Part shown: in pieces, positions 3,152 to 52,782 of the stretch | How the letters are laid out: each line of letters opens with the position of its first letter | Numbering within the stretch: the first letter of the stretch is position 1 | Source of the DNA: a virus | Lineage: Duplodnaviria > Caudoviricetes | Length of the DNA: 64,000 nt | Reading direction: 5' to 3' (one strand) | IMG/VR virus record: IMGVR_UViG_3300026549_000029 | Span: 96,001-160,000 of that record | Translations under genes and position numbers: made by a program | Notes under the pieces: generated by a model | The model's database searches: none | Told to the model about the DNA's origin: nothing | What the model saw: the letters and a program-made list of their open reading frames with translations, nothing else

Positions 3152-3325
3152 TGATATATACGATATTACTACAATAATAGTACATATCCATTACGTTATA
3201 TCATCTTTATTATCTTAATATTAATGGAGGAATTTTTAAAGGACACAAACCTCAAAAATCATACTAAAATTTAATTTTCTAATATTTTTTTTTCAATAAT
3301 ATAATAAATATAAAAATTGTATATG

Positions 3326-3821: not shown

Positions 3822-4682
3822 ATGAATATTAAACCTGTAATATTTAATACAAATAATCCTAACTTCAAAAAAGAATTAGCAGATAAAGCATCAAACTGGT
3901 TTAATAAAATGGAAACAGAATATTTAGATATTATTACAAATTCTTTCAATAATACTAAAAAATATAATCCTGATTTTTTAGGTAAATTATCATATGATAA
4001 TAATAATAATAATAAATCTACTATTCAAAATATTCAATTATTAGATATGGATTCTGTATCAGCAGCATATTTAATAAATTTTGCAACAAAAAATGAAGAT
4101 AAACCTATTGGATTATTAAATTTTGCATCTTTTAAGTTTCCAGGTGGATTGTTTTTGCAGGGAAGTAGGATGCAAGAAGAATCATTATGTCATGAATCAA
4201 TTCTTTATAATGTACTTAGAAGATTTAATTTAGATTTTTATGGAGAAAATAGATTATTATGTAAAAGATATAAAGATGTAAATAGTACATATATAAATAG
4301 AGGTTTATATTCTCCAGATATATTATTTATCCATAATAATGAAAAATTCTACTGTAATGTAATTACAGTAGCAGCTCCTAATAATAGAAAACATGATATA
4401 TCAAATGATGTTAATTATAGAGCTTTATATGCAAGAATAAAATTTGTATTAGACATTGCTAAAGATAATAATATAAAAACTATTATTCTTGGAGCATTTG
4501 GTTGTGGAGTATTCAAACAAAATCCTGAAGAAGTAGCAAATATATTTAAAGAATTATTAATATTTGGAGAATATAATTTTAATAATGTATATTTTGCTAT
4601 TCCTTATGGAAATAATTATAAAGTATTTGCCAGAGTACTTAAAGCTTGTCTTTCTGGTATTATTATTGATAATGAAACTTAA
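3822..4682 (+). CDS. TIGR02452-family microbial PARG-like macrodomain (ADP-ribose glycohydrolase)
   Basis: LNFAS..PGG.F..GSRMQEESLC signature, ITVAAP, ILGAFGCGVF. Confidence 0.85.
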   Translation: MNIKPVIFNTNNPNFKKELADKASNWFNKMETEYLDIITNSFNNTKKYNPDFLGKLSYDNNNNNKSTIQNIQLLDMDSVSAAYLINFATKNEDKPIGLLNFASFKFPGGLFLQGSRMQEESLCHESILYNVLRRFNLDFYGENRLLCKRYKDVNSTYINRGLYSPDILFIHNNEKFYCNVITVAAPNNRKHDISNDVNYRALYARIKFVLDIAKDNNIKTIILGAFGCGVFKQNPEEVANIFKELLIFGEYNFNNVYFAIPYGNNYKVFARVLKACLSGIIIDNET

Positions 4683-4699
4683 ATAATAGGAGGATAGTT

Positions 4700-4939
4700 A
4701 TGACTTCATTTAAAACGAAACAAAATTTAATTGATGCTTTAAAAGAATTATGCTTAGGATGTGAAGTAGATTATCATCCTTTAGGTGGAGATATTATCTA
4801 TTGTACACAAGAATATTTTCATGCTAAAAATAATAATATTCCTATTGCAGGAATTAGAATTGTTGATATTTTAAGTGGAAAAATATGTGGATTTATCTAT
4901 GAAAATAAACCTACTGAAGTAGAATGGTATGATGCATAA
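4700..4939 (+). CDS. Hypothetical protein
   Basis: 79 aa, RBS AGGAGG. Confidence 0.7.
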   Translation: MTSFKTKQNLIDALKELCLGCEVDYHPLGGDIIYCTQEYFHAKNNNIPIAGIRIVDILSGKICGFIYENKPTEVEWYDA

Positions 4940-5109
4940 TAAAAGAAGAGGAGAGCTAATATTAGCTCTCCTCATATTCTAAATTATTTTTTATAAATAT
5001 ATTATAATTTTGAGAAAGGAGATTATATAGTATCAAAATTAACTATTTACAAAACTTTATATTATAAGGTGAAAACTATTTTAAGAGAGAATAATAAGGA
5101 GAAATAAAA

Positions 5110-7224
5110 ATGATATCTAACTTTGAAAATTATGGTCCATTTATAAAATTAGTACAAGATGGATATATGGATTTATATACAAAAGATATAAATACTAAAA
5201 ATTATAATTCTTATTTTGATGGAATTCTTAATATCATGAGAGATGGTATTGAAGATCCAGAAGTACAAGCATTAAAAATTGGAGTTCATTTAGATGATGG
5301 AAATTTTGTTAAATTAACTGTACCTGATTTATATTTTCAATTAATTTTCTTTACATTTCCTATTTATATTGGAACTCCTATTACAGTAATTCATCTTGTA
5401 GATACAAGACAAATTACAAAACGTACTATTAGAGAATACTTTAATATGCTAATTAAGCAACATTCTAAAGATGTTGATTTTATTACTCTAAATAACTTAA
5501 TTGATGAGACTATTTACAAATTTAAATATATAGATGAATTTGCAATGTATTTATCCAATACAGTTAATTTTAAAGATACATTAGATTTAATGATAAAATA
5601 TCCTGAATTTAATGAATCTATTCATGCAGATTTATCTGGAGTTCCTATTGAAGATGTAAAAGATGTAGGAATGAAGTATACTCAAACTCAGATTAACTAT
5701 ATTAAGAATAATGATCATTGTTTAAGAGATTCTTTTATTGCACAAGAAGCTATATCTCCTAAACAATTTAAAGAAGTATCTGTAAATATTGGTACTAAAC
5801 CTGATGGACATGGAGGGATATTCCCCTATATTATTAATAATTCTTTTATGAATGGTGGAGTATCCAATCCTGAATCTTATGTTATAGATTCTTCTGTAGG
5901 AAGAACAGCACAAATATTACAGAAAATGAATGTTGGTACATCAGGAGCATTTGCAAGATTATTGGAGACTAATAATCTTGATACTTTCTTTAATCCGGAT
6001 CAAGATTATTCTTGTGATACAAAGAATTTTATTCAAGTATTTATTAAAGATTCTAACTGGTTATCTAAATATGATAAAAGATATTATAGATTTAATCCAG
6101 ATGGAATTGATTATGTATTAGATAAAGATAAAGATATTCATTTAATTGGGCAAACTCTATTATTTAGATCACCTATTACATGTGCATCTTATGCCCATGG
6201 ATACGGAATTTGTAGAAAATGTTATGGGGATCTTTATTATATTAATAGAGATATAAATCCTGGAAAAATGGCAGCAGAATTATTATCATCTAAATATACG
6301 CAGATGCTTTTATCTGCTAAACATTTGTTGGAATCTTCTGTCATAGAGATGAAATGGAATCAAGAATTCTTTGATATTTTTGAATTAAATCTTAATATGA
6401 TATCTATTCAAGAAGATATTGAATTGGAAGGATATTATATGATTCTTGATTCTAATAAATTTATATCTGATGAAGATGATGATTCTGAAGATGCTGGAAT
6501 TCAATATGAAGAATATATTCCATCTTTCGATATTAAATATTCTAATGGAAATATTATTACATTCCATACATCAGAAGAAGATAATATTTATCTTACAGAA
6601 GATCTTAATAGATTATTAAAATCTAAAAAAGTAAAAGAGAATGAAGATGGTCTTTATATAATATCTCTTGAGTTATTAAGTTCTATTCCTGTAGTATTTA
6701 CTGTAAAGATTCAAAATAAAGAATTACAGAGAACTTTGGAAAGATCTAAAAATATTATTAATAGAGATAAGGATACAAGTAGTTTTACTAAAGATGAAAT
6801 TGTTAAAGAATTTATAACTGCTAATATGGAAGGTGGAATCGATATATCTGCTATCCATTTGGAGACCATATTATCAAATCAGATGAGAGATCCTGATGAT
6901 ATTTTATCTATGCCTAATTGGTCTATAAGAAATGCACCATATAAGATTCTTACTTTAGGTTCAGCATTAAATAACAGTCCTTCAATTACAGTAACCCTAG
7001 AATATCAAAAAATTGGTAAGACTTTAATTAGTCCATTATCTGCTAAAAAGAGAAAACCTTCTGTATTTGATTTATATTTTATGGAGAAACCTCAAGATTA
7101 TGTAGAGAATAATGAAATGGTTTCTGATAAATATAAAATGAAAGAAGATAATGATCCTAATGTATTGAAAGATGTTATTTATTTTATTAATAATGAAGAA
7201 CCTAGTGACTTATGTGATGATTAA
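5110..7224 (+). CDS. Phage multisubunit RNA polymerase beta-prime subunit, C-terminal part (probably non-virion; phiKZ gp74-like)
   Basis: Bridge-helix-like GTSGAFAR, Zn site RSPITC..GICRKCYG, trigger loop TQMLLSAKH, HLETIL; followed by a helicase as in phiKZ gp74-gp75. Confidence 0.9.
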   Translation: MISNFENYGPFIKLVQDGYMDLYTKDINTKNYNSYFDGILNIMRDGIEDPEVQALKIGVHLDDGNFVKLTVPDLYFQLIFFTFPIYIGTPITVIHLVDTRQITKRTIREYFNMLIKQHSKDVDFITLNNLIDETIYKFKYIDEFAMYLSNTVNFKDTLDLMIKYPEFNESIHADLSGVPIEDVKDVGMKYTQTQINYIKNNDHCLRDSFIAQEAISPKQFKEVSVNIGTKPDGHGGIFPYIINNSFMNGGVSNPESYVIDSSVGRTAQILQKMNVGTSGAFARLLETNNLDTFFNPDQDYSCDTKNFIQVFIKDSNWLSKYDKRYYRFNPDGIDYVLDKDKDIHLIGQTLLFRSPITCASYAHGYGICRKCYGDLYYINRDINPGKMAAELLSSKYTQMLLSAKHLLESSVIEMKWNQEFFDIFELNLNMISIQEDIELEGYYMILDSNKFISDEDDDSEDAGIQYEEYIPSFDIKYSNGNIITFHTSEEDNIYLTEDLNRLLKSKKVKENEDGLYIISLELLSSIPVVFTVKIQNKELQRTLERSKNIINRDKDTSSFTKDEIVKEFITANMEGGIDISAIHLETILSNQMRDPDDILSMPNWSIRNAPYKILTLGSALNNSPSITVTLEYQKIGKTLISPLSAKKRKPSVFDLYFMEKPQDYVENNEMVSDKYKMKEDNDPNVLKDVIYFINNEEPSDLCDD

Positions 7225-45977: not shown

Positions 45978-47927
45978 GTGGATCAAAACTTCTCTTTTAA
46001 TTATCAACAAATTCCTATGCCAGAAAATAGAGATCCTTATTCTGGTAATATTGGAAGTATGATGGTATCTCCTAGTGATAAACCATCTATTGATAAATTT
46101 ATGTATAAATTTAATAAAGAAAATAGAGCTCCATTTAATGATTATTGGTTTCAAAGAAATGATGAAGATCTTATTGAAGGAATGAAACAAGTAATCTTAT
46201 CCTGTCAAAGAGATAAATACTTTGTATTGAAAGTATTGAACTTTGAAACTATTAAAGATTATAATGAAATTAATAGAGCTCTCTATGAATACTATTCTGC
46301 TAAAACTAAGAATGGTAAAAAGATTGATAATAATTATGAGTATATTAATCTTAGAGATTCAGATATAATGTTACTTAAAGTAATTTATTATGTCAAATTA
46401 AATGTACCAGAGAATAAGATCAGAATTGATTCTAAAACTGGAGAATTAGAAAAGAGTGAAGGGATTGTAAATGTATTAATAGCATTACCAAGATATGTAG
46501 ATAAGTATTATTTTAGAATTCTTGGTAATTATTATAATCCTATATTCCAGATTGTAGATGGAAGCACTTATAATAATTCTACATCTAATAGTAAGACTCA
46601 ATCTATTACTTTAAAGACACAGTTTATGCCTATTAAAGTATACAAAGAGTATTATGATTTAGTAGACATTTGTGATAAAGAATCTCATAGATGTGTATTA
46701 TTTGCAAGCTATGTGTTTACTAAGAAAACAGATACAATGAAATTTATTTTAGGACGTTATGGCTTATATGGAACCCTTGAAATGCTGGAATTAGAAGGTA
46801 TTTATGTATTTCCGTATGAGAACCATCAGGTATTAGATCCTAAAACTTATTATAATTTTGCGGATAAACATAATAAGATAATTGTATCTGTAGTAAAGAG
46901 ATTATTTGATAAAGATAATGTAACACAATCTTTTTGTTATACAATTTTAAAGAGTGTTAAAAAGCTTAATAAATTTAATGATATATTTGATCCAAGATAT
47001 TGGAATAAAATATTAGGAGCAGATTTTCAATCTGCCACTTTAGATAAAGGGATTCCTGTACTTGATTCTTTGGAAAGCATTTATGATTTGAAAACTAAAC
47101 ATTCTATAAGATTGCCATTAGAAGATAAAGCTGATACTTATTGCATTCTTAGATGGATGATGAGAGAGTTCTCTTATTTAAAACAAAGAGATAATATTGA
47201 TATATCTACTAAACATCCAAGAAAAGCAGATGAATATCTTCCTGCTATCTATGCTAAGAAAATTTCTACTGGTATTTATAGAATTTCTGACAAAGGAAAA
47301 AATATTACCTTTAAAGATGTGACAAGAGTAATTGATACAGCACCAGATTATATACTTAAGTCTATTAACTCTGCTAACTTAGTAGATTATGTAGATCTTG
47401 TAAATGATAATGATGCTGAATTGGCTTTAGCTTATACTTATAAAGGAATTTCTGGTCTTGGAGATCAGGGAAATGGTACAGCAGTACCTATTATCTATAG
47501 AAGTGTACATCCTTCTCATTTAGGTAGAGTAGATTTAGACTCTTCTTCTAATTCAGATCCTGGTTTATCTGGAATGATTTGTCCTATGGCAAAAGTATAT
47601 GATGGTTCTTTTTCTGATTATAAAGAACCTAATGAATGGAGGAACTTTTATAAAGAGACATTACAAGAATTAAATAGTCTTTATGGTATAAAGCAAGCTA
47701 TAGAATTAAAGAAAACTCTTGGATTATCATATGATTATGTAAAAGAAGATATGGTAAGAGAGACTATAGAAACATATCATAGATTAATTCCTCTTGTTAT
47801 TGATATTGAAGGTAAGAAAGATTATACTTTAGGTGCTGTTATGGATATAGAGGAACAAGTACTTGTAGAATCTGATTCTGAAGATGGTGTAGGAGAAATT
47901 ACTACAACTATGGAAAGAATAACCTGA
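45978..47927 (+). CDS. Phage RNA polymerase beta subunit, N-terminal part (phiKZ gp123-like)
   Basis: YFRILGN.Y.PIFQ, YRSVHPSHLGRVDLDSSSNSDPGLSG.ICP; GTG start after GAGGAGG. Confidence 0.88.
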   Translation: MDQNFSFNYQQIPMPENRDPYSGNIGSMMVSPSDKPSIDKFMYKFNKENRAPFNDYWFQRNDEDLIEGMKQVILSCQRDKYFVLKVLNFETIKDYNEINRALYEYYSAKTKNGKKIDNNYEYINLRDSDIMLLKVIYYVKLNVPENKIRIDSKTGELEKSEGIVNVLIALPRYVDKYYFRILGNYYNPIFQIVDGSTYNNSTSNSKTQSITLKTQFMPIKVYKEYYDLVDICDKESHRCVLFASYVFTKKTDTMKFILGRYGLYGTLEMLELEGIYVFPYENHQVLDPKTYYNFADKHNKIIVSVVKRLFDKDNVTQSFCYTILKSVKKLNKFNDIFDPRYWNKILGADFQSATLDKGIPVLDSLESIYDLKTKHSIRLPLEDKADTYCILRWMMREFSYLKQRDNIDISTKHPRKADEYLPAIYAKKISTGIYRISDKGKNITFKDVTRVIDTAPDYILKSINSANLVDYVDLVNDNDAELALAYTYKGISGLGDQGNGTAVPIIYRSVHPSHLGRVDLDSSSNSDPGLSGMICPMAKVYDGSFSDYKEPNEWRNFYKETLQELNSLYGIKQAIELKKTLGLSYDYVKEDMVRETIETYHRLIPLVIDIEGKKDYTLGAVMDIEEQVLVESDSEDGVGEITTTMERIT

Positions 47928-48968: not shown

Positions 48969-49043
48969 GAAAATATTATATTGGTAGAGTAGGATTTAAC
49001 TACTCTACCAATATATTTATAATATTATTTTTCGGAGAATTAT

Positions 49044-49340
49044 ATGGAAAATATAGCATCTACTGGCATAGATAAATTAAAAAATGAAAAACCAATAGAA
49101 GCTCTTTATTTTTTAGATAATACATGTCCAAAATGTGGTGATAAACTAGAATTAATAACAAGAAAATTGGATAATATTAATATAGCTATAAGATATGAAT
49201 GTAAAAAATGTGGTTATATTTGTCCAATAAAATATGATATGAAAGACTCTATATGTGATAAAGATAAATTTAATATGCCAAAATATAGTCCATTATATGA
49301 TAGAAGTATTTATGAATTTATAAAATATTTTGGAGAATAA
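49044..49340 (+). CDS. Zinc-ribbon protein
   Basis: CPKCG...CKKCG. Confidence 0.7.
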   Translation: MENIASTGIDKLKNEKPIEALYFLDNTCPKCGDKLELITRKLDNINIAIRYECKKCGYICPIKYDMKDSICDKDKFNMPKYSPLYDRSIYEFIKYFGE

Positions 49341-49341
49341 A

Positions 49342-50091
49342 ATGGAAGAATATATTAGTATAACTGAATTATTAAATAGAATAAAAAAGCAAAGAAAGAT
49401 TGTTTTAGAATTGGACCATAAATATTTAGATCCAGATGAATTTAAAAAATCAAAATCTTTGTTTTCACTATATAATCCTTCTAGAGATGTAACAGTTAAT
49501 GGTATAAATATAGATAAATCTAAATTTGATATAATAAAACAATTTGAATCTATTACAAGTAATATAAATATTCTTAGACATTTACTTATTATTAAAGAAC
49601 AAGTTAATTCTACTTTTAAACTTGTTGTACCTGATATTTTATTAGGAGATACTAAAAATACTGCTTTATCACTTGCTCAAATATTAGTATTGAAATCTCC
49701 ATTGGTAAAAGAATATTATTTAAAATTTGCTGAAAGACTAAAAAGTGACATTAATAATTTACAAGAAACATTAGATGTTTATAATTCTAATACATTATCA
49801 GATGAAAAAATTAATGCTTATGTATTAGCTAAATTGAATTCTTTAAAAATAAATTTAGATTATAAATCTATTGCTAATTTATGTAGTTTACCAGAATATA
49901 ATTCCTTTGCAAAAGAATATATAGATGCTAATAAATTAGAAATAATAGATCCATTAAATTTACAAACTGAAAGTGCTAAATATATAAATAATATTTATAA
50001 TTTTTATGATATTATAGATCTTAAATTATTAGAATTTAATTCTAGTACTAAAATTTGGATAAATATTGATAATGGTACATGGAGAAGTTGA
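49342..50091 (+). CDS. DUF6847/DIP1984-like coiled-coil protein
   Basis: ISITELL..IK N-terminus, internal LSLAQIL..K, C-terminal IIDPLNL...IDLKLLEFNSSTKI. Confidence 0.55.
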   Translation: MEEYISITELLNRIKKQRKIVLELDHKYLDPDEFKKSKSLFSLYNPSRDVTVNGINIDKSKFDIIKQFESITSNINILRHLLIIKEQVNSTFKLVVPDILLGDTKNTALSLAQILVLKSPLVKEYYLKFAERLKSDINNLQETLDVYNSNTLSDEKINAYVLAKLNSLKINLDYKSIANLCSLPEYNSFAKEYIDANKLEIIDPLNLQTESAKYINNIYNFYDIIDLKLLEFNSSTKIWINIDNGTWRS

Positions 50092-50320
50092 TATTAGATC
50101 TTAAGAAGACTAGATCAATAAAAATGCTAAAGGTAATATTAGGTTCTTTTATAAAAAATAAAGGGCTGCGAGTATATTACCAATATCTTAATACCAGGAA
50201 CATAGGTTTGTAAATATATATTGATCTTCTTTTCCACATAATTTATAAAAATAGACTAACTTGTATTATGATGGTTATAGCATTCCATAATATTGATCTA
50301 AGAACTTAAGATTTTAATAT
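50091..50320 (+). ncRNA. Candidate structured ncRNA C (about 230 nt, multibranched)
   Basis: Four stacked long-range stems close a junction with two further paired arms; followed by a separate terminator. Confidence 0.6.
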
Positions 50321-50324
50321 ATTT

Positions 50325-50355
50325 GAGTAGGGGAGAAATCCCCTACTCTATTTTA
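50325..50355 (+). terminator. Rho-independent terminator
   Basis: gagtagggga-gaaa-tcccctactc followed by T tract. Confidence 0.85.
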
Positions 50356-50432
50356 TATTTAAAATATATTTTTAATAAGATATTATAATAATGAAACTAT
50401 AAATAATTTTATAATATAAAGGAGAAATAAAA

Positions 50433-51173
50433 ATGATTAAAGTTAATATTGATTCTAAAATTTTATGGGAAAATTATAATGAATATACAAAAATGCTTTC
50501 AACATTTGATAGTGATTATAAAGGCTATAAAAGAGAAGATGCATTTATAGATTATTTACTTAAAGATATATCCTATAATAATTTTCAAATATTATGTACA
50601 GAATTTTTTAGAAGAAGTATTCGATACATAGATGCTGAAGAACGTAATTTTATTTATAGAATAACGAGAATATTAAATATTCATGCAGAAATGATATTAA
50701 ATACAACATTTTCTAGATTAATAAGTATTATTTGGACAAATAAAAGAAACAGTAGTGGAATTAAAGATAATAAAAATTTTGATATTTATACATTATTTAC
50801 AAAAACAACTCCAATTGATACCAATATTGAAGCTGCTACAATATCAGCATTTACCATGATTTTGGAATTTAAAAATAAAGTTATAATTCCAAATAATATT
50901 GATAATATAGATTTAAATACAATATTTAATATTATAACTTTTAACAGTATGTATATGGCTAATAATATAGATGTGATATATAATGAAAAAGGACAATTTA
51001 GTTTTATTAAAAATCTTAAAGAAAAATTTACTGAGAAAGATGAATTAGAATTACAAAAATTTTTAGAAAAAGAAAGAAAGACCCATATTGAAGTATGGAA
51101 TAAATTTGTAAAGACAATTATAGATAGAGAATATGATAAAGGTTATGCAATTTTAAAAGATAATATTTTTTAA
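50433..51173 (+). CDS. Hypothetical early protein, paralog of the next gene
   Basis: Shared Y.LFT...P..T and E..THI..W.KF.....R.Y motifs. Confidence 0.7.
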   Translation: MIKVNIDSKILWENYNEYTKMLSTFDSDYKGYKREDAFIDYLLKDISYNNFQILCTEFFRRSIRYIDAEERNFIYRITRILNIHAEMILNTTFSRLISIIWTNKRNSSGIKDNKNFDIYTLFTKTTPIDTNIEAATISAFTMILEFKNKVIIPNNIDNIDLNTIFNIITFNSMYMANNIDVIYNEKGQFSFIKNLKEKFTEKDELELQKFLEKERKTHIEVWNKFVKTIIDREYDKGYAILKDNIF

Positions 51174-51226
51174 ATTATTATAATGATAAAATTATTAAAA
51201 TAATTATGTATAAAGGAGAAATAAAA

Positions 51227-51991
51227 ATGTTAAGGTTTGACGATAATAAAAAATCAAATGAAAAAAAGATTTTATTTGATATAGTAAATAAAATTAATAA
51301 AGAAGCTAAAAAAGAACAAGTATCAGTACCATATTATCTTAATAAATTATTATATAAAAAAGATATGAATACTTTTTCTGATGTATGTAGCTATTTGTAT
51401 GCATTAGATATGATTAATCTTAATTTATTTACAGATGATAATATGATTGATTCTTTTGGAGATACTAGAGTATTATGTGAGGAAAATGCTGAAAAATATT
51501 TAGATGAAACAGTAATTGCTATATATAAAGATATTTTATATAAACAAAAAAGTGATGATCATTCTTTTGATAATAGAGTTGATTATATTTATCATTTATT
51601 TACAAATATAGTTCCTATGAGTACATATGTTACATCAAGTATTATTGCTACAACTTATATCATGAGATATTATAGTATGGAAAGTATTATTTGTACTACA
51701 GCTACTGCTACTAGTAATTTAAATAGATTAAGAAATATTATTAAATTATATAATGGTAAAGTATACCCTTGGGTATATTATGAAGATTATGAAAGTGAAT
51801 TTAAAACTGCAGATGATAGATTTTTAACTATTGAAGAAAGAAATAATTTAAATAAAATTATTGATAGAGAAATAAATACACATATTATGTATTGGAAAAA
51901 ATTTATTAATGGTTTAGTAGAAAGAAATTATGGATTCTGTATTAGTTTAATACAGAATAATATGAATGGTAAGTATGATAGAATATATTGA
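51227..51991 (+). CDS. Hypothetical early protein, paralog of the previous gene
   Basis: Same leader tataaaggagaaataaaaatg and the same C-terminal motifs. Confidence 0.7.
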   Translation: MLRFDDNKKSNEKKILFDIVNKINKEAKKEQVSVPYYLNKLLYKKDMNTFSDVCSYLYALDMINLNLFTDDNMIDSFGDTRVLCEENAEKYLDETVIAIYKDILYKQKSDDHSFDNRVDYIYHLFTNIVPMSTYVTSSIIATTYIMRYYSMESIICTTATATSNLNRLRNIIKLYNGKVYPWVYYEDYESEFKTADDRFLTIEERNNLNKIIDREINTHIMYWKKFINGLVERNYGFCISLIQNNMNGKYDRIY

Positions 51992-52782
51992 TGGAGGAAT
52001 TAAAATTGAATAATAATTCATATGCAATAAGAGATTGTATTTTAAATTGTAGTATTAATGAAAAACAAGATGCTTATATTCAACCTCTTGATGAATTATC
52101 ATCTTATTTAGTATATAATTTCTTTGATTATGCTGTATATTTTGATACATCTCTCAAATGTATTGATGAAATTGAAAAAGGAAATTTTACCAGAGAAAGA
52201 TTTTCTAAAACAGTATATACTCTTTATAAATTTATGCAAAATAAATGGGAAAATGAAAATAATAGTGGAGAAAATATTATTAATAGATCTTCATTTTTAA
52301 TTCATATTCCTGATACTTCAACTAATTTTGCAATTAATTTTCCTCTTTGCTTAGATGAATTATTTGAATCTATGAAAGAGTTTATTATTGCTTTTAGGAA
52401 ATGGAGTATGGAAACAATAGAATCTTCTTGGAAAAGAAATGTAAGGGATTTAAGTCCTTATATGGAATCAATGTTTAAAGAATTATATTTCTTTAAACTT
52501 GAATTATATAGTGCTTATCTTAATGATGGAAGTTATGATGATAAAGTTGTGTTTGCAAGCCCATTTAGTCAAATTAGAAATATATATGGATTAAATTCTA
52601 ATATTAGAGATTTTACTAGATCTGTGACAGATATTTATAATGATATTAATTCAATTAGTTATTTAATAAGAGCTACTATAAATTTTTCTACACCTATAGA
52701 TATGTCTATAAGAAATGATATCTTTAAAGCTCAAAATCCAAATATTAAACAGCAAATAAATAATGAAGAAGAAGATTGGTAA
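51988..52782 (+). CDS. Hypothetical protein
   Basis: 264 aa ORF. Confidence 0.65.
   Translation: MMEELKLNNNSYAIRDCILNCSINEKQDAYIQPLDELSSYLVYNFFDYAVYFDTSLKCIDEIEKGNFTRERFSKTVYTLYKFMQNKWENENNSGENIINRSSFLIHIPDTSTNFAINFPLCLDELFESMKEFIIAFRKWSMETIESSWKRNVRDLSPYMESMFKELYFFKLELYSAYLNDGSYDDKVVFASPFSQIRNIYGLNSNIRDFTRSVTDIYNDINSISYLIRATINFSTPIDMSIRNDIFKAQNPNIKQQINNEEEDW

Follow-up and report, generated by a model that had tools for sequence, protein, structure and literature searches.

The window analysed here, a stretch of 64,000 nucleotides comprising bases 96001-160000 of the 287,868-bp virus record IMGVR_UViG_3300026549_000029 (Caudoviricetes; complete according to CheckV; GC content 27.7%), carries at 50091-50321, directly behind the gene for a 249-aa helical protein, what our analysis confirms to be a real, evolutionarily conserved and strand-specific structured non-coding RNA. 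With a probability of about 0.5, we read this RNA of ~230 nt as the 3' part of a dedicated transcription unit and as the clade-specific short form of a gene-RNA module that is widespread among large phages, the RNA acting together with the protein encoded upstream of it. A preliminary description made from the letters of the DNA had proposed a structured RNA that is tied to this gene and is not a terminator, and this has been borne out: the RNA lies on the strand of the gene, it is found in 13 of 13 homologous loci, and in 74 of 80 remote loci an RNA occupies the equivalent position. The parts of the element are the following.

50091-50321, + strand: structured non-coding RNA, whole element (folding, covariation, homologous loci)
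50091-50120, + strand: 5' strands of helices P1 (50091-50105) and P2 (50111-50120), forming the long closing rod
50123-50129, + strand: 5' strand of helix P3, whose partner lies at 50278-50284
50132-50181, + strand: P4/P4a arm with conserved UUAGG...CUGYGAG
50193-50214, + strand: near-invariant core ACCAGRAACAURGGUUUGUAAA (alignment A4)
50278-50321, + strand: 3' strands of P3, P2 (50291-50300) and P1 (50305-50320)

The two ends of the RNA are joined by a rod made of P1 (15 bp), P2 (10-14 bp) and P3 (6-7 bp), which runs from the stop codon to 3-4 nt short of the terminator; its first helix, P1, shares its initial A with the final position of the stop codon TGA (50089-50091) and ends at 50320. 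Every pairing that had been listed beforehand was recovered, including a helix that starts within the stop codon: the outermost atatta 50091-50096 with taatat 50315-50320, atcttaag 50098-50105 with cttaagat 50305-50312, tagatcaata 50111-50120 with tattgatcta 50291-50300, aatgcta 50123-50129 with tagcatt 50278-50284 and, inside the rod, ggtaatat 50132-50139 with atattacc 50174-50181 and ggttcttt 50142-50149 with aaagggct 50160-50167. A second arm proposed to start with taatac/gtatta does occur in the closest relatives, and in those only, while covariation lends it no support. The rod encloses P4/P4a and, in relatives, a variable hairpin that is not present in the window RNA. On the 3' side of the core lies a variable AU-rich arm followed by a conserved distal GGUU (50273-50276); no single consensus fold could be obtained for 50215-50272, where the helices differ among subgroups. 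The ACC of the core might pair with the local GGU or with the distal GGUU; none of the bases involved vary. The earlier statement that the element contains no open reading frame (ORF) holds in substance, in that a 44-aa ORF (50079-50213) is limited to the window and its 95%-identical relative and no ORF within the RNA is conserved across the relatives. As anticipated, the fold is also better than chance: the + strand of 50085-50325 reaches a minimum free energy of -51 kcal/mol against -36.8 ± 4.2 kcal/mol for dinucleotide-shuffled controls (z -3.37, 1 of 200 shuffles as good), and the - strand folds less well (z -2.06).

Comparison among relatives supports P1, P2, P3, P4 and P4a in 12 distinct loci, which is the covarying structure downstream of homologues that had been predicted. 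Homologues of the 249-aa protein number 15 and are 40-96% identical to it; DNA was obtained for 13 homologous loci, 12 distinct sequences being well aligned (alignment A4), and behind the gene all 13 loci, down to 40% protein identity, keep a gene-free stretch of 335-470 nt. Across the 12 distinct loci, 96.8% of the cells in P1, P3, P4, P4a and a small hairpin are paired, and sliding the partners by 1-3 columns makes pairing fall to 38-44%. Compensatory changes were found at 12 pairs, with 40 cells altered on both sides, a result equalled by 0 of 500 shuffles; they include 5 pairs of P1 and 3 of the 6 pairs of P3. P2, which was misaligned by MAFFT and was assessed instead by duplex folding of the flanking segments, forms a helix of 10-14 bp in all relatives, is spelled differently from one to the next (CUAGAUCAAU, GAAUCAAAUUAA, UAUAUUAAACCA and UAUAUUAAGUCA, for example) and is fully covarying. 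In the more distant loci (L011-L014) the long closing helix is retained in unrelated sequence. The gene-free gap persists even where the downstream genes differ, as at L011, where an SbcC-like gene follows directly; therefore, the RNA travels with its upstream gene and not with the downstream ones. A pattern search of IMG/VR with ATTAGGYTC...AACRTRGGTTT returned 13 stretches, only 2 of them real, and a metagenome scan with the protein alignment returned only 4 loci.

These data also bear on whether the element acts as RNA or as DNA. G·U pairs are frequent, and on the + strand only, whereas A·C mismatches are confined to the misaligned P2 columns, which indicates that the RNA is made from the + strand. 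The long imperfect inverted repeats at both ends might alternatively betray a DNA-level element (an inverted-repeat mobile element, an origin or a recombination site), an explanation that we find scarcely credible given the strand-specific G·U pairs, the compensatory changes that preserve RNA pairing, the poorer folding of the - strand and a position relative to one gene that is fixed across relatives. The element is, moreover, single-copy in the genome, where a covariance model of the whole window RNA (R1) finds one site at an expectation value (E) of 3e-30, and a mobile inverted-repeat element was rejected on that ground. Nor does the RNA belong to a catalogued family: the Rfam search that had been suggested gave no match across the whole window at gathering score (Rfam 15) and, at E up to 10 for 50000-50450, returned chance-level rows alone (E 0.57-9.7). 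Group I intron, tmRNA, 6S RNA, RNase P, self-cleaving ribozyme and riboswitch were all rejected for lack of any Rfam signal and, further, there is no space for a second exon ahead of the terminator.

The RNA is the last component of its own transcription unit, which is ordered as terminator, TATAAT element, Zn-ribbon gene, 249-aa gene, RNA and terminator.

48977-49015, + strand: intrinsic terminator closing the preceding unit (16-bp stem, T run)
49016-49043, + strand: promoter-like TATAAT element (49018-49023) and ribosome-binding site of the module (conservation in relatives, consensus scan)
49044-49340, + strand: gene for a 98-aa Zn-ribbon protein, first in the unit (sub-threshold Pfam Zn-ribbon matches, phrog_10675)
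49342-50091, + strand: gene for the 249-aa helical protein, a distant PHROG 1491 member and predicted homodimer
50325-50355, + strand: intrinsic terminator of the module (stem 50325-50348 plus T run; 3-4 nt past P1)
50378-50396, + strand: early-type phage promoter AAGATATTATAATAATGAA of the next unit, a boundary mark outside the module (recurrent motif, kept in relatives)

The terminator at 48977-49015, whose stem is kept in L003-L009 and L035, separates the module from a preceding unit of genes for an RNA polymerase (RNAP)-like protein of 649 aa and for proteins of 83 aa and 247 aa; the terminator at 50325, which the preliminary description had rightly set apart from the structured RNA (50325-50348 plus T run), is conserved in all relatives. 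These two terminators and the conserved region between the units delimit the module, which therefore consists of the Zn-ribbon gene, the 249-aa gene and the RNA. The relatives share ...CCAATAT(A/T)(T/A)TTATAATA... around the TATAAT element, a putative promoter of the module. Synteny across the clade is RNAP-like (~650 aa), 83 aa, 247 aa, Zn-ribbon (~98 aa) and target gene. The 98-aa protein has a Pfam match to an RPB9-type Zn-ribbon at 8e-5, below threshold, and a match to phrog_10675; its gene lies upstream in L003-L012 and thus, as had been surmised, shares the transcription unit in this clade, but it is absent beside the remote homologues and so is not part of the core module.

Since the multi-helix junction closed by P1 ends 3-4 nt ahead of the terminator, one could picture the RNA as a riboswitch-like or antiterminator element controlling how much transcription passes the terminator at 50325 and reaches the genes beyond it. 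This is very improbable: the downstream unit has a strong conserved promoter of its own, the 3' strand of P1 and the terminator stem do not overlap, L011 keeps RNA, terminator and promoter in front of different downstream genes, and no riboswitch in Rfam matches. The promoter in question belongs to a recurrent promoter-like motif, (A/T)(G/T)ATATTATAATAATGAA, that stands after the module terminator in all relatives and at ~25 other intergenic sites; its ATATTATAAT core has 78 copies in the genome, ~25 of which are intergenic and precede ribosome-binding sites.

On either side of the module, some neighbouring genes deserve mention. The 649-aa protein (45978-47927), which heads the preceding unit, matches phrog_2943 'polymerase' (1.9e-17) and probably represents one fragment of a multisubunit phage RNAP that is split; throughout this clade the module lies just downstream of its gene. 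Downstream, 50433-52782 holds three consecutive genes for proteins of 246, 261 and 264 aa, at least the first two of which look paralogous, with shared C-terminal motifs such as THIEVWNKFV / THIMYWKKFI and no family matches; they are missing from L011, where SbcC directly follows the RNA.

The protein itself had been likened to DUF6847/DIP1984, a call that turned out to be weak. Neither Pfam nor NCBIfam matches the 249-aa protein or its 13 homologues, none of which reaches the curated hidden Markov model cut-off of DUF6847 or DIP1984, and of 12 distant 210-aa relatives tested, one matched DUF6847 (PF20935) at E 0.015 and two matched DIP1984_fam (NF038048) at E 0.02. The DIP1984 structure 3kdq was the top PDB match in two fold searches (Z 7.9, root-mean-square deviation 8.8 Å, 152 aligned residues; Foldseek probability 0.44), a strength that falls in the range seen among unrelated helical proteins; Foldseek gave nothing against PDB below E 0.36, a protein profile found nothing among PDB sequences, and a literature search on DIP1984 yielded nothing relevant. 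The AlphaFold model (predicted local distance difference test, pLDDT, 90.1) consists of two long helical hairpins and short strands, with BFVD fold matches at probability 1.0 to uncharacterised proteins of Aeromonas, Cronobacter and Acinetobacter phages. Profile matches to phrog_1491 in 14 of 14 homologues (best 7.3e-10; 5.5e-6 in the genome search) mark the protein as a distant PHROG 1491 member, the window protein itself matching at E 1.3e-4 over its C-terminal 57 residues only; the PHROG label, 'tail fiber protein', is doubtful. A profile search of 1.8 billion representatives found 205 clusters, ~50 of the 240-270-aa type and then many proteins of 205-215 aa. Structure prediction supports, but does not show, that the 249-aa protein forms a homodimer (ipSAE 0.76 against 0.00 for the best control; at least 92% of contacts shared among runs; pLDDT at least 86), an ipSAE of 0.76 being reached by 20 of 30 solved homo-pairs and by 1 of 23 single chains.

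Beyond the clade, a gene of the same family followed by a large RNA recurs in many large phages. The 4-kb segment 48000-52000 (blastn) and the 249-aa protein (tblastn) have no match among 50,697 phage records, and tblastn with a 211-aa relative found 126 phage records, among them phages of Vibrio, Bacillus, Lactococcus and Clostridioides. Bacillus phage Deep Blue and Vibrio phage Pontus have the gene directly behind the tRNA array, and the unannotated stretch after it, terminator included, is 557 nt long in the former and 364 nt in the latter; gaps of 380-580 nt lie behind it in Lactococcus phage WRP3, Ralstonia phage RsoM2USA and Erwinia phage AH06. We studied the remote, ~210-aa type in a sample of 80 of the 309 IMG/VR loci found, 77 of which have tRNAs within 2.5 kb. 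A detector that demands YGAAAAY, at least 150 nt, GGCUG and flanks forming a duplex of -14 kcal/mol or better was positive downstream on the sense strand in 74 of the 80, against 20 of 80 in antisense and 11 of 80 upstream. These broad-type RNAs have a median span of 389 nt, a 5' motif ~30 nt past the stop codon and closing helices of 13-20 bp (37 distinct ones, 12% G·U, covarying); internally they contain arrays of short NUCAAAGNU-like repeats and, in some, embedded tRNAs, and a conserved 3' module follows, composed of UUUAYAAAAUCC, a covarying 5-bp helix and GGCUG. A model of this 3' module trained on 26 loci (R2) finds the held-out Deep Blue (2.8e-8), RsoM2USA (9e-8) and AH06 (0.026) in the expected place and strand. 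The whole looks like a widespread, uncharacterised gene-plus-RNA module of large phages, in which the gene for a dimeric helical PHROG 1491 protein is followed, no more than ~30 nt past its stop codon, by a large RNA whose ends are paired in a long helix.

Other RNAs occur in the same surroundings. RAGATH-36 RNA (103-151 bits) precedes the PHROG 1491 homologue by 1.1-1.6 kb in several IMG/VR phages, at L053 1283-1411, L099 903-1059, L046 937-1065 and L054 1440-1567; the same tRNA islands also contain drum RNA (L044) and HEARO RNA (L071); and in Lactococcus phage WRP3 (L039) a skipping-rope RNA (71.8 bits) and a tmRNA-like 3'-end match, at 1-46 and 364-442, lie among the tRNAs upstream of the homologue.

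That the window RNA is a short form of this module is suggested by several shared traits. As in the broad type, no more than ~30 nt separate its start from the stop codon of a PHROG 1491 gene on the same strand, and its ends pair in a covarying helix of at least 13 bp. Locus L125 combines a homologue of the 249-aa protein (profile E 1.1e-11) and the RNAP...SbcC synteny of the window with a broad-type RNA behind the gene, complete with closing helix, UCGUAAAUC repeats and AAAUCUGG...CCAGCUG. L011 and L013 have AAAUCC or AAAUU and then a hairpin just ahead of the closing strand, and, by eye, the window-type AAAACC...AUGGGUUUG and distal GGUU resemble UUUAYAAAAUCC...AUGGUUUG...GGCUG. At the 5' junction, where the broad type has YGAAAAY, L007 reads UGAAAAU; in the window and its remaining relatives the sequence is UAAAAAU. 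L125 has, besides, on the far side of its ~390-nt RNA ~900 nt of GC-richer gene-free sequence (4660-5560) with GUGUCAAAGCUAUCU repeated at ~4999 and 5483 and no Rfam or tRNA match, which may be another large RNA.

A number of observations weigh against our reading. Homology of the window-type and the broad-type RNA is not demonstrable by the covariance models: R1 detects nothing in L011-L014 or in loci of the 210-aa type, and R2 gives nothing significant in window-type loci or L125, its best E being 0.94, inside the RNA of L006. As the models fail to cross this gap, the homology is inferred from position, architecture and the homology of the proteins. RAGATH-27, an Rfam family that recognises some remote RNAs (see below), has no match to the window RNA at E up to 10 (gathering score 76.1 bits). 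Among the remote loci, an extra ORF stands between gene and RNA in L048, L051 and L053, and L045 has no RNA at all. The link to tRNAs is indirect in this genome: its five tRNA genes, at 33.9-36.0 kb, are ~110 kb from the module at 146 kb, and a tRNA search across the 64-kb window found none. Finally, the protein and its relatives are acidic (isoelectric point 5.1-6.2), which is unusual for a binder of much RNA and counsels caution on physical binding.

With these reservations, we infer processing of the RNA, its physical association with the protein and its biological role along the following lines. The terminal rod of 25-30 bp formed by P1 and P2 would protect the RNA and might also make it a target for excision by RNase III or another double-strand RNase; once the mRNA had decayed, the RNA would remain as a stable species; and it may act with the protein encoded upstream, either as its bound partner or as the object of its action. 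Since the usual site of the module is a phage tRNA island, and the RNA sometimes has tRNAs embedded in it, a role connected with tRNA or translation is probable.

An improbable account is that the element is a cis-acting 3' untranslated region controlling stability or translation of the upstream mRNA, for instance by blocking 3' exonucleases or by sensing ribosomes that stop atop P1. It is always 3' of the same gene. P1, moreover, overlaps the stop codon in the window and begins 0-3 nt away from it in close relatives, which means that a ribosome terminating there has to unwind this helix; even so, 230-460 nt with several covarying helices and invariant unpaired stretches, and in relatives with short-repeat arrays and embedded tRNAs, exceed the needs of a stabiliser, and the separate terminator hairpin would already protect the 3' end. 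The least unlikely of the alternatives, though unlikely, is an independent RNA that acts in trans with no protein, in the manner of ROOL and GOLLD, adjacency to the gene reflecting shared transcription or inheritance. ROOL and GOLLD, phage RNAs found near tRNA islands, assemble without protein, and the linker of GOLLD can carry tRNAs (bioRxiv 10.1101/2024.12.08.627333); the broad RNA type likewise has embedded tRNAs, and the acidity of the protein family would be accommodated as well. What speaks for a joint action of RNA and protein is that gene-RNA order, strand and ~30-nt spacing hold in 74 of 80 remote loci and likewise in the clade of the window, where no tRNA island is nearby; if gene and RNA had no functional connection, so tight a linkage over such divergence would be difficult to account for.

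More tentatively, the PHROG 1491 dimer and its adjacent RNA might constitute an unrecognised class of ribonucleoproteins of large phages (Herelleviridae, Demerecviridae, Lactococcus 949-like phages and several jumbo-phage lineages) that acts on tRNAs or ribosomes during infection, e.g. by shielding or decoying against host tRNA-cleaving defences. If this were true, the minimal 230-nt version in the window could define the functional core; comparing it with the intermediates gives a hint of the parts that can be dispensed with. Phage RNAs of a large, folded kind occur abundantly near tRNA islands (ROOL, GOLLD and the long RNAs of phage K), and we know of neither an explained function nor a protein partner for any of them; here, hundreds of phage contigs link an RNA of that sort to one and the same gene. 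Three of the phages that carry the module, Bacillus phage Deep Blue, Vibrio phage Pontus and Lactococcus phage WRP3, are themselves cultured and tractable, which opens a genetic and biochemical route to its function.

Among known systems, the type III toxin-antitoxin RNA is a tandem repeat array upstream of the toxin gene with a terminator in between, whereas the window RNA lies downstream of its gene and has no tandem array; the earlier suggestion of an antitoxin finds no support. RAGATH-27 (Rfam RF03100, 86 nt) covers the first ~86 nt of the RNA behind remote homologues, with matches ~20 nt past the stop codon at L062 3164-3249 (92.9 bits) and L087 3146-3233 (90.3 bits). It corresponds to the 5' part alone of an RNA of ~390 nt and passes threshold in 2 of 20 loci scanned, and a literature search on it gave nothing relevant; on sequence grounds, RAGATH-27 is the catalogued 5' fragment of the broad-type module, which places this Rfam family at the 5' end of a much larger RNA. 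Staphylococcus phage K expresses highly two uncharacterised RNAs, lnc001 and lnc002, beside tRNA genes (PMC9241854), and as a large Herelleviridae phage with a tRNA-gene setting it recalls the Deep Blue locus; none of the phages in the named part of our tblastn tally, six organism names of which are unlisted, is a Staphylococcus phage.

The architecture has a parallel in YrlA, the bacterial Y RNA of Ro/Rsr, in which the 5' and 3' ends likewise join in a long stem around a second module. In Erwinia phage AH06 (L041), 3253-3317 is a circularly permuted tRNA-like element in which a T arm and then a loop-capped acceptor stem precede the D arm; its match to the YrlA tRNA-like module (model positions 23-87) scores 37.3 bits at E 5.9e-5, below the gathering score of 69, and this YrlA-like tRNA mimic sits inside the RNA behind the PHROG 1491 homologue. 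The window gave no YrlA row at gathering score or at E up to 10. Unlike in the YrlA system, the protein adjoining the present RNA is not Ro-like, and the neighbours in the window are Zn-ribbon, helical-protein and RNAP-like genes. ROOL and GOLLD resemble the present RNAs as large, elaborately folded RNAs of phages and prophages, often near tRNA islands, the broad form sharing both the setting and the embedded tRNAs; they differ in measuring ~580-800 nt as against 230-460 nt, and it is the present RNAs that are tied to one protein gene. Their covariance models match nothing in the window or in the remote loci scanned, and the window locus is not at a tRNA island. A precedent for the arrangement proposed here comes from a different kind of protein: TnpB of IS607 is a RuvC nuclease on a transposon, whereas the present protein is a helical dimer, by prediction, of 210-250 aa with no nuclease motif, encoded at a single-copy, non-mobile locus. 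In that system, a RAGATH motif just 3' of the gene, the RAGATH-18-derived reRNA, proved to be the RNA partner of the protein (PMC11061315).
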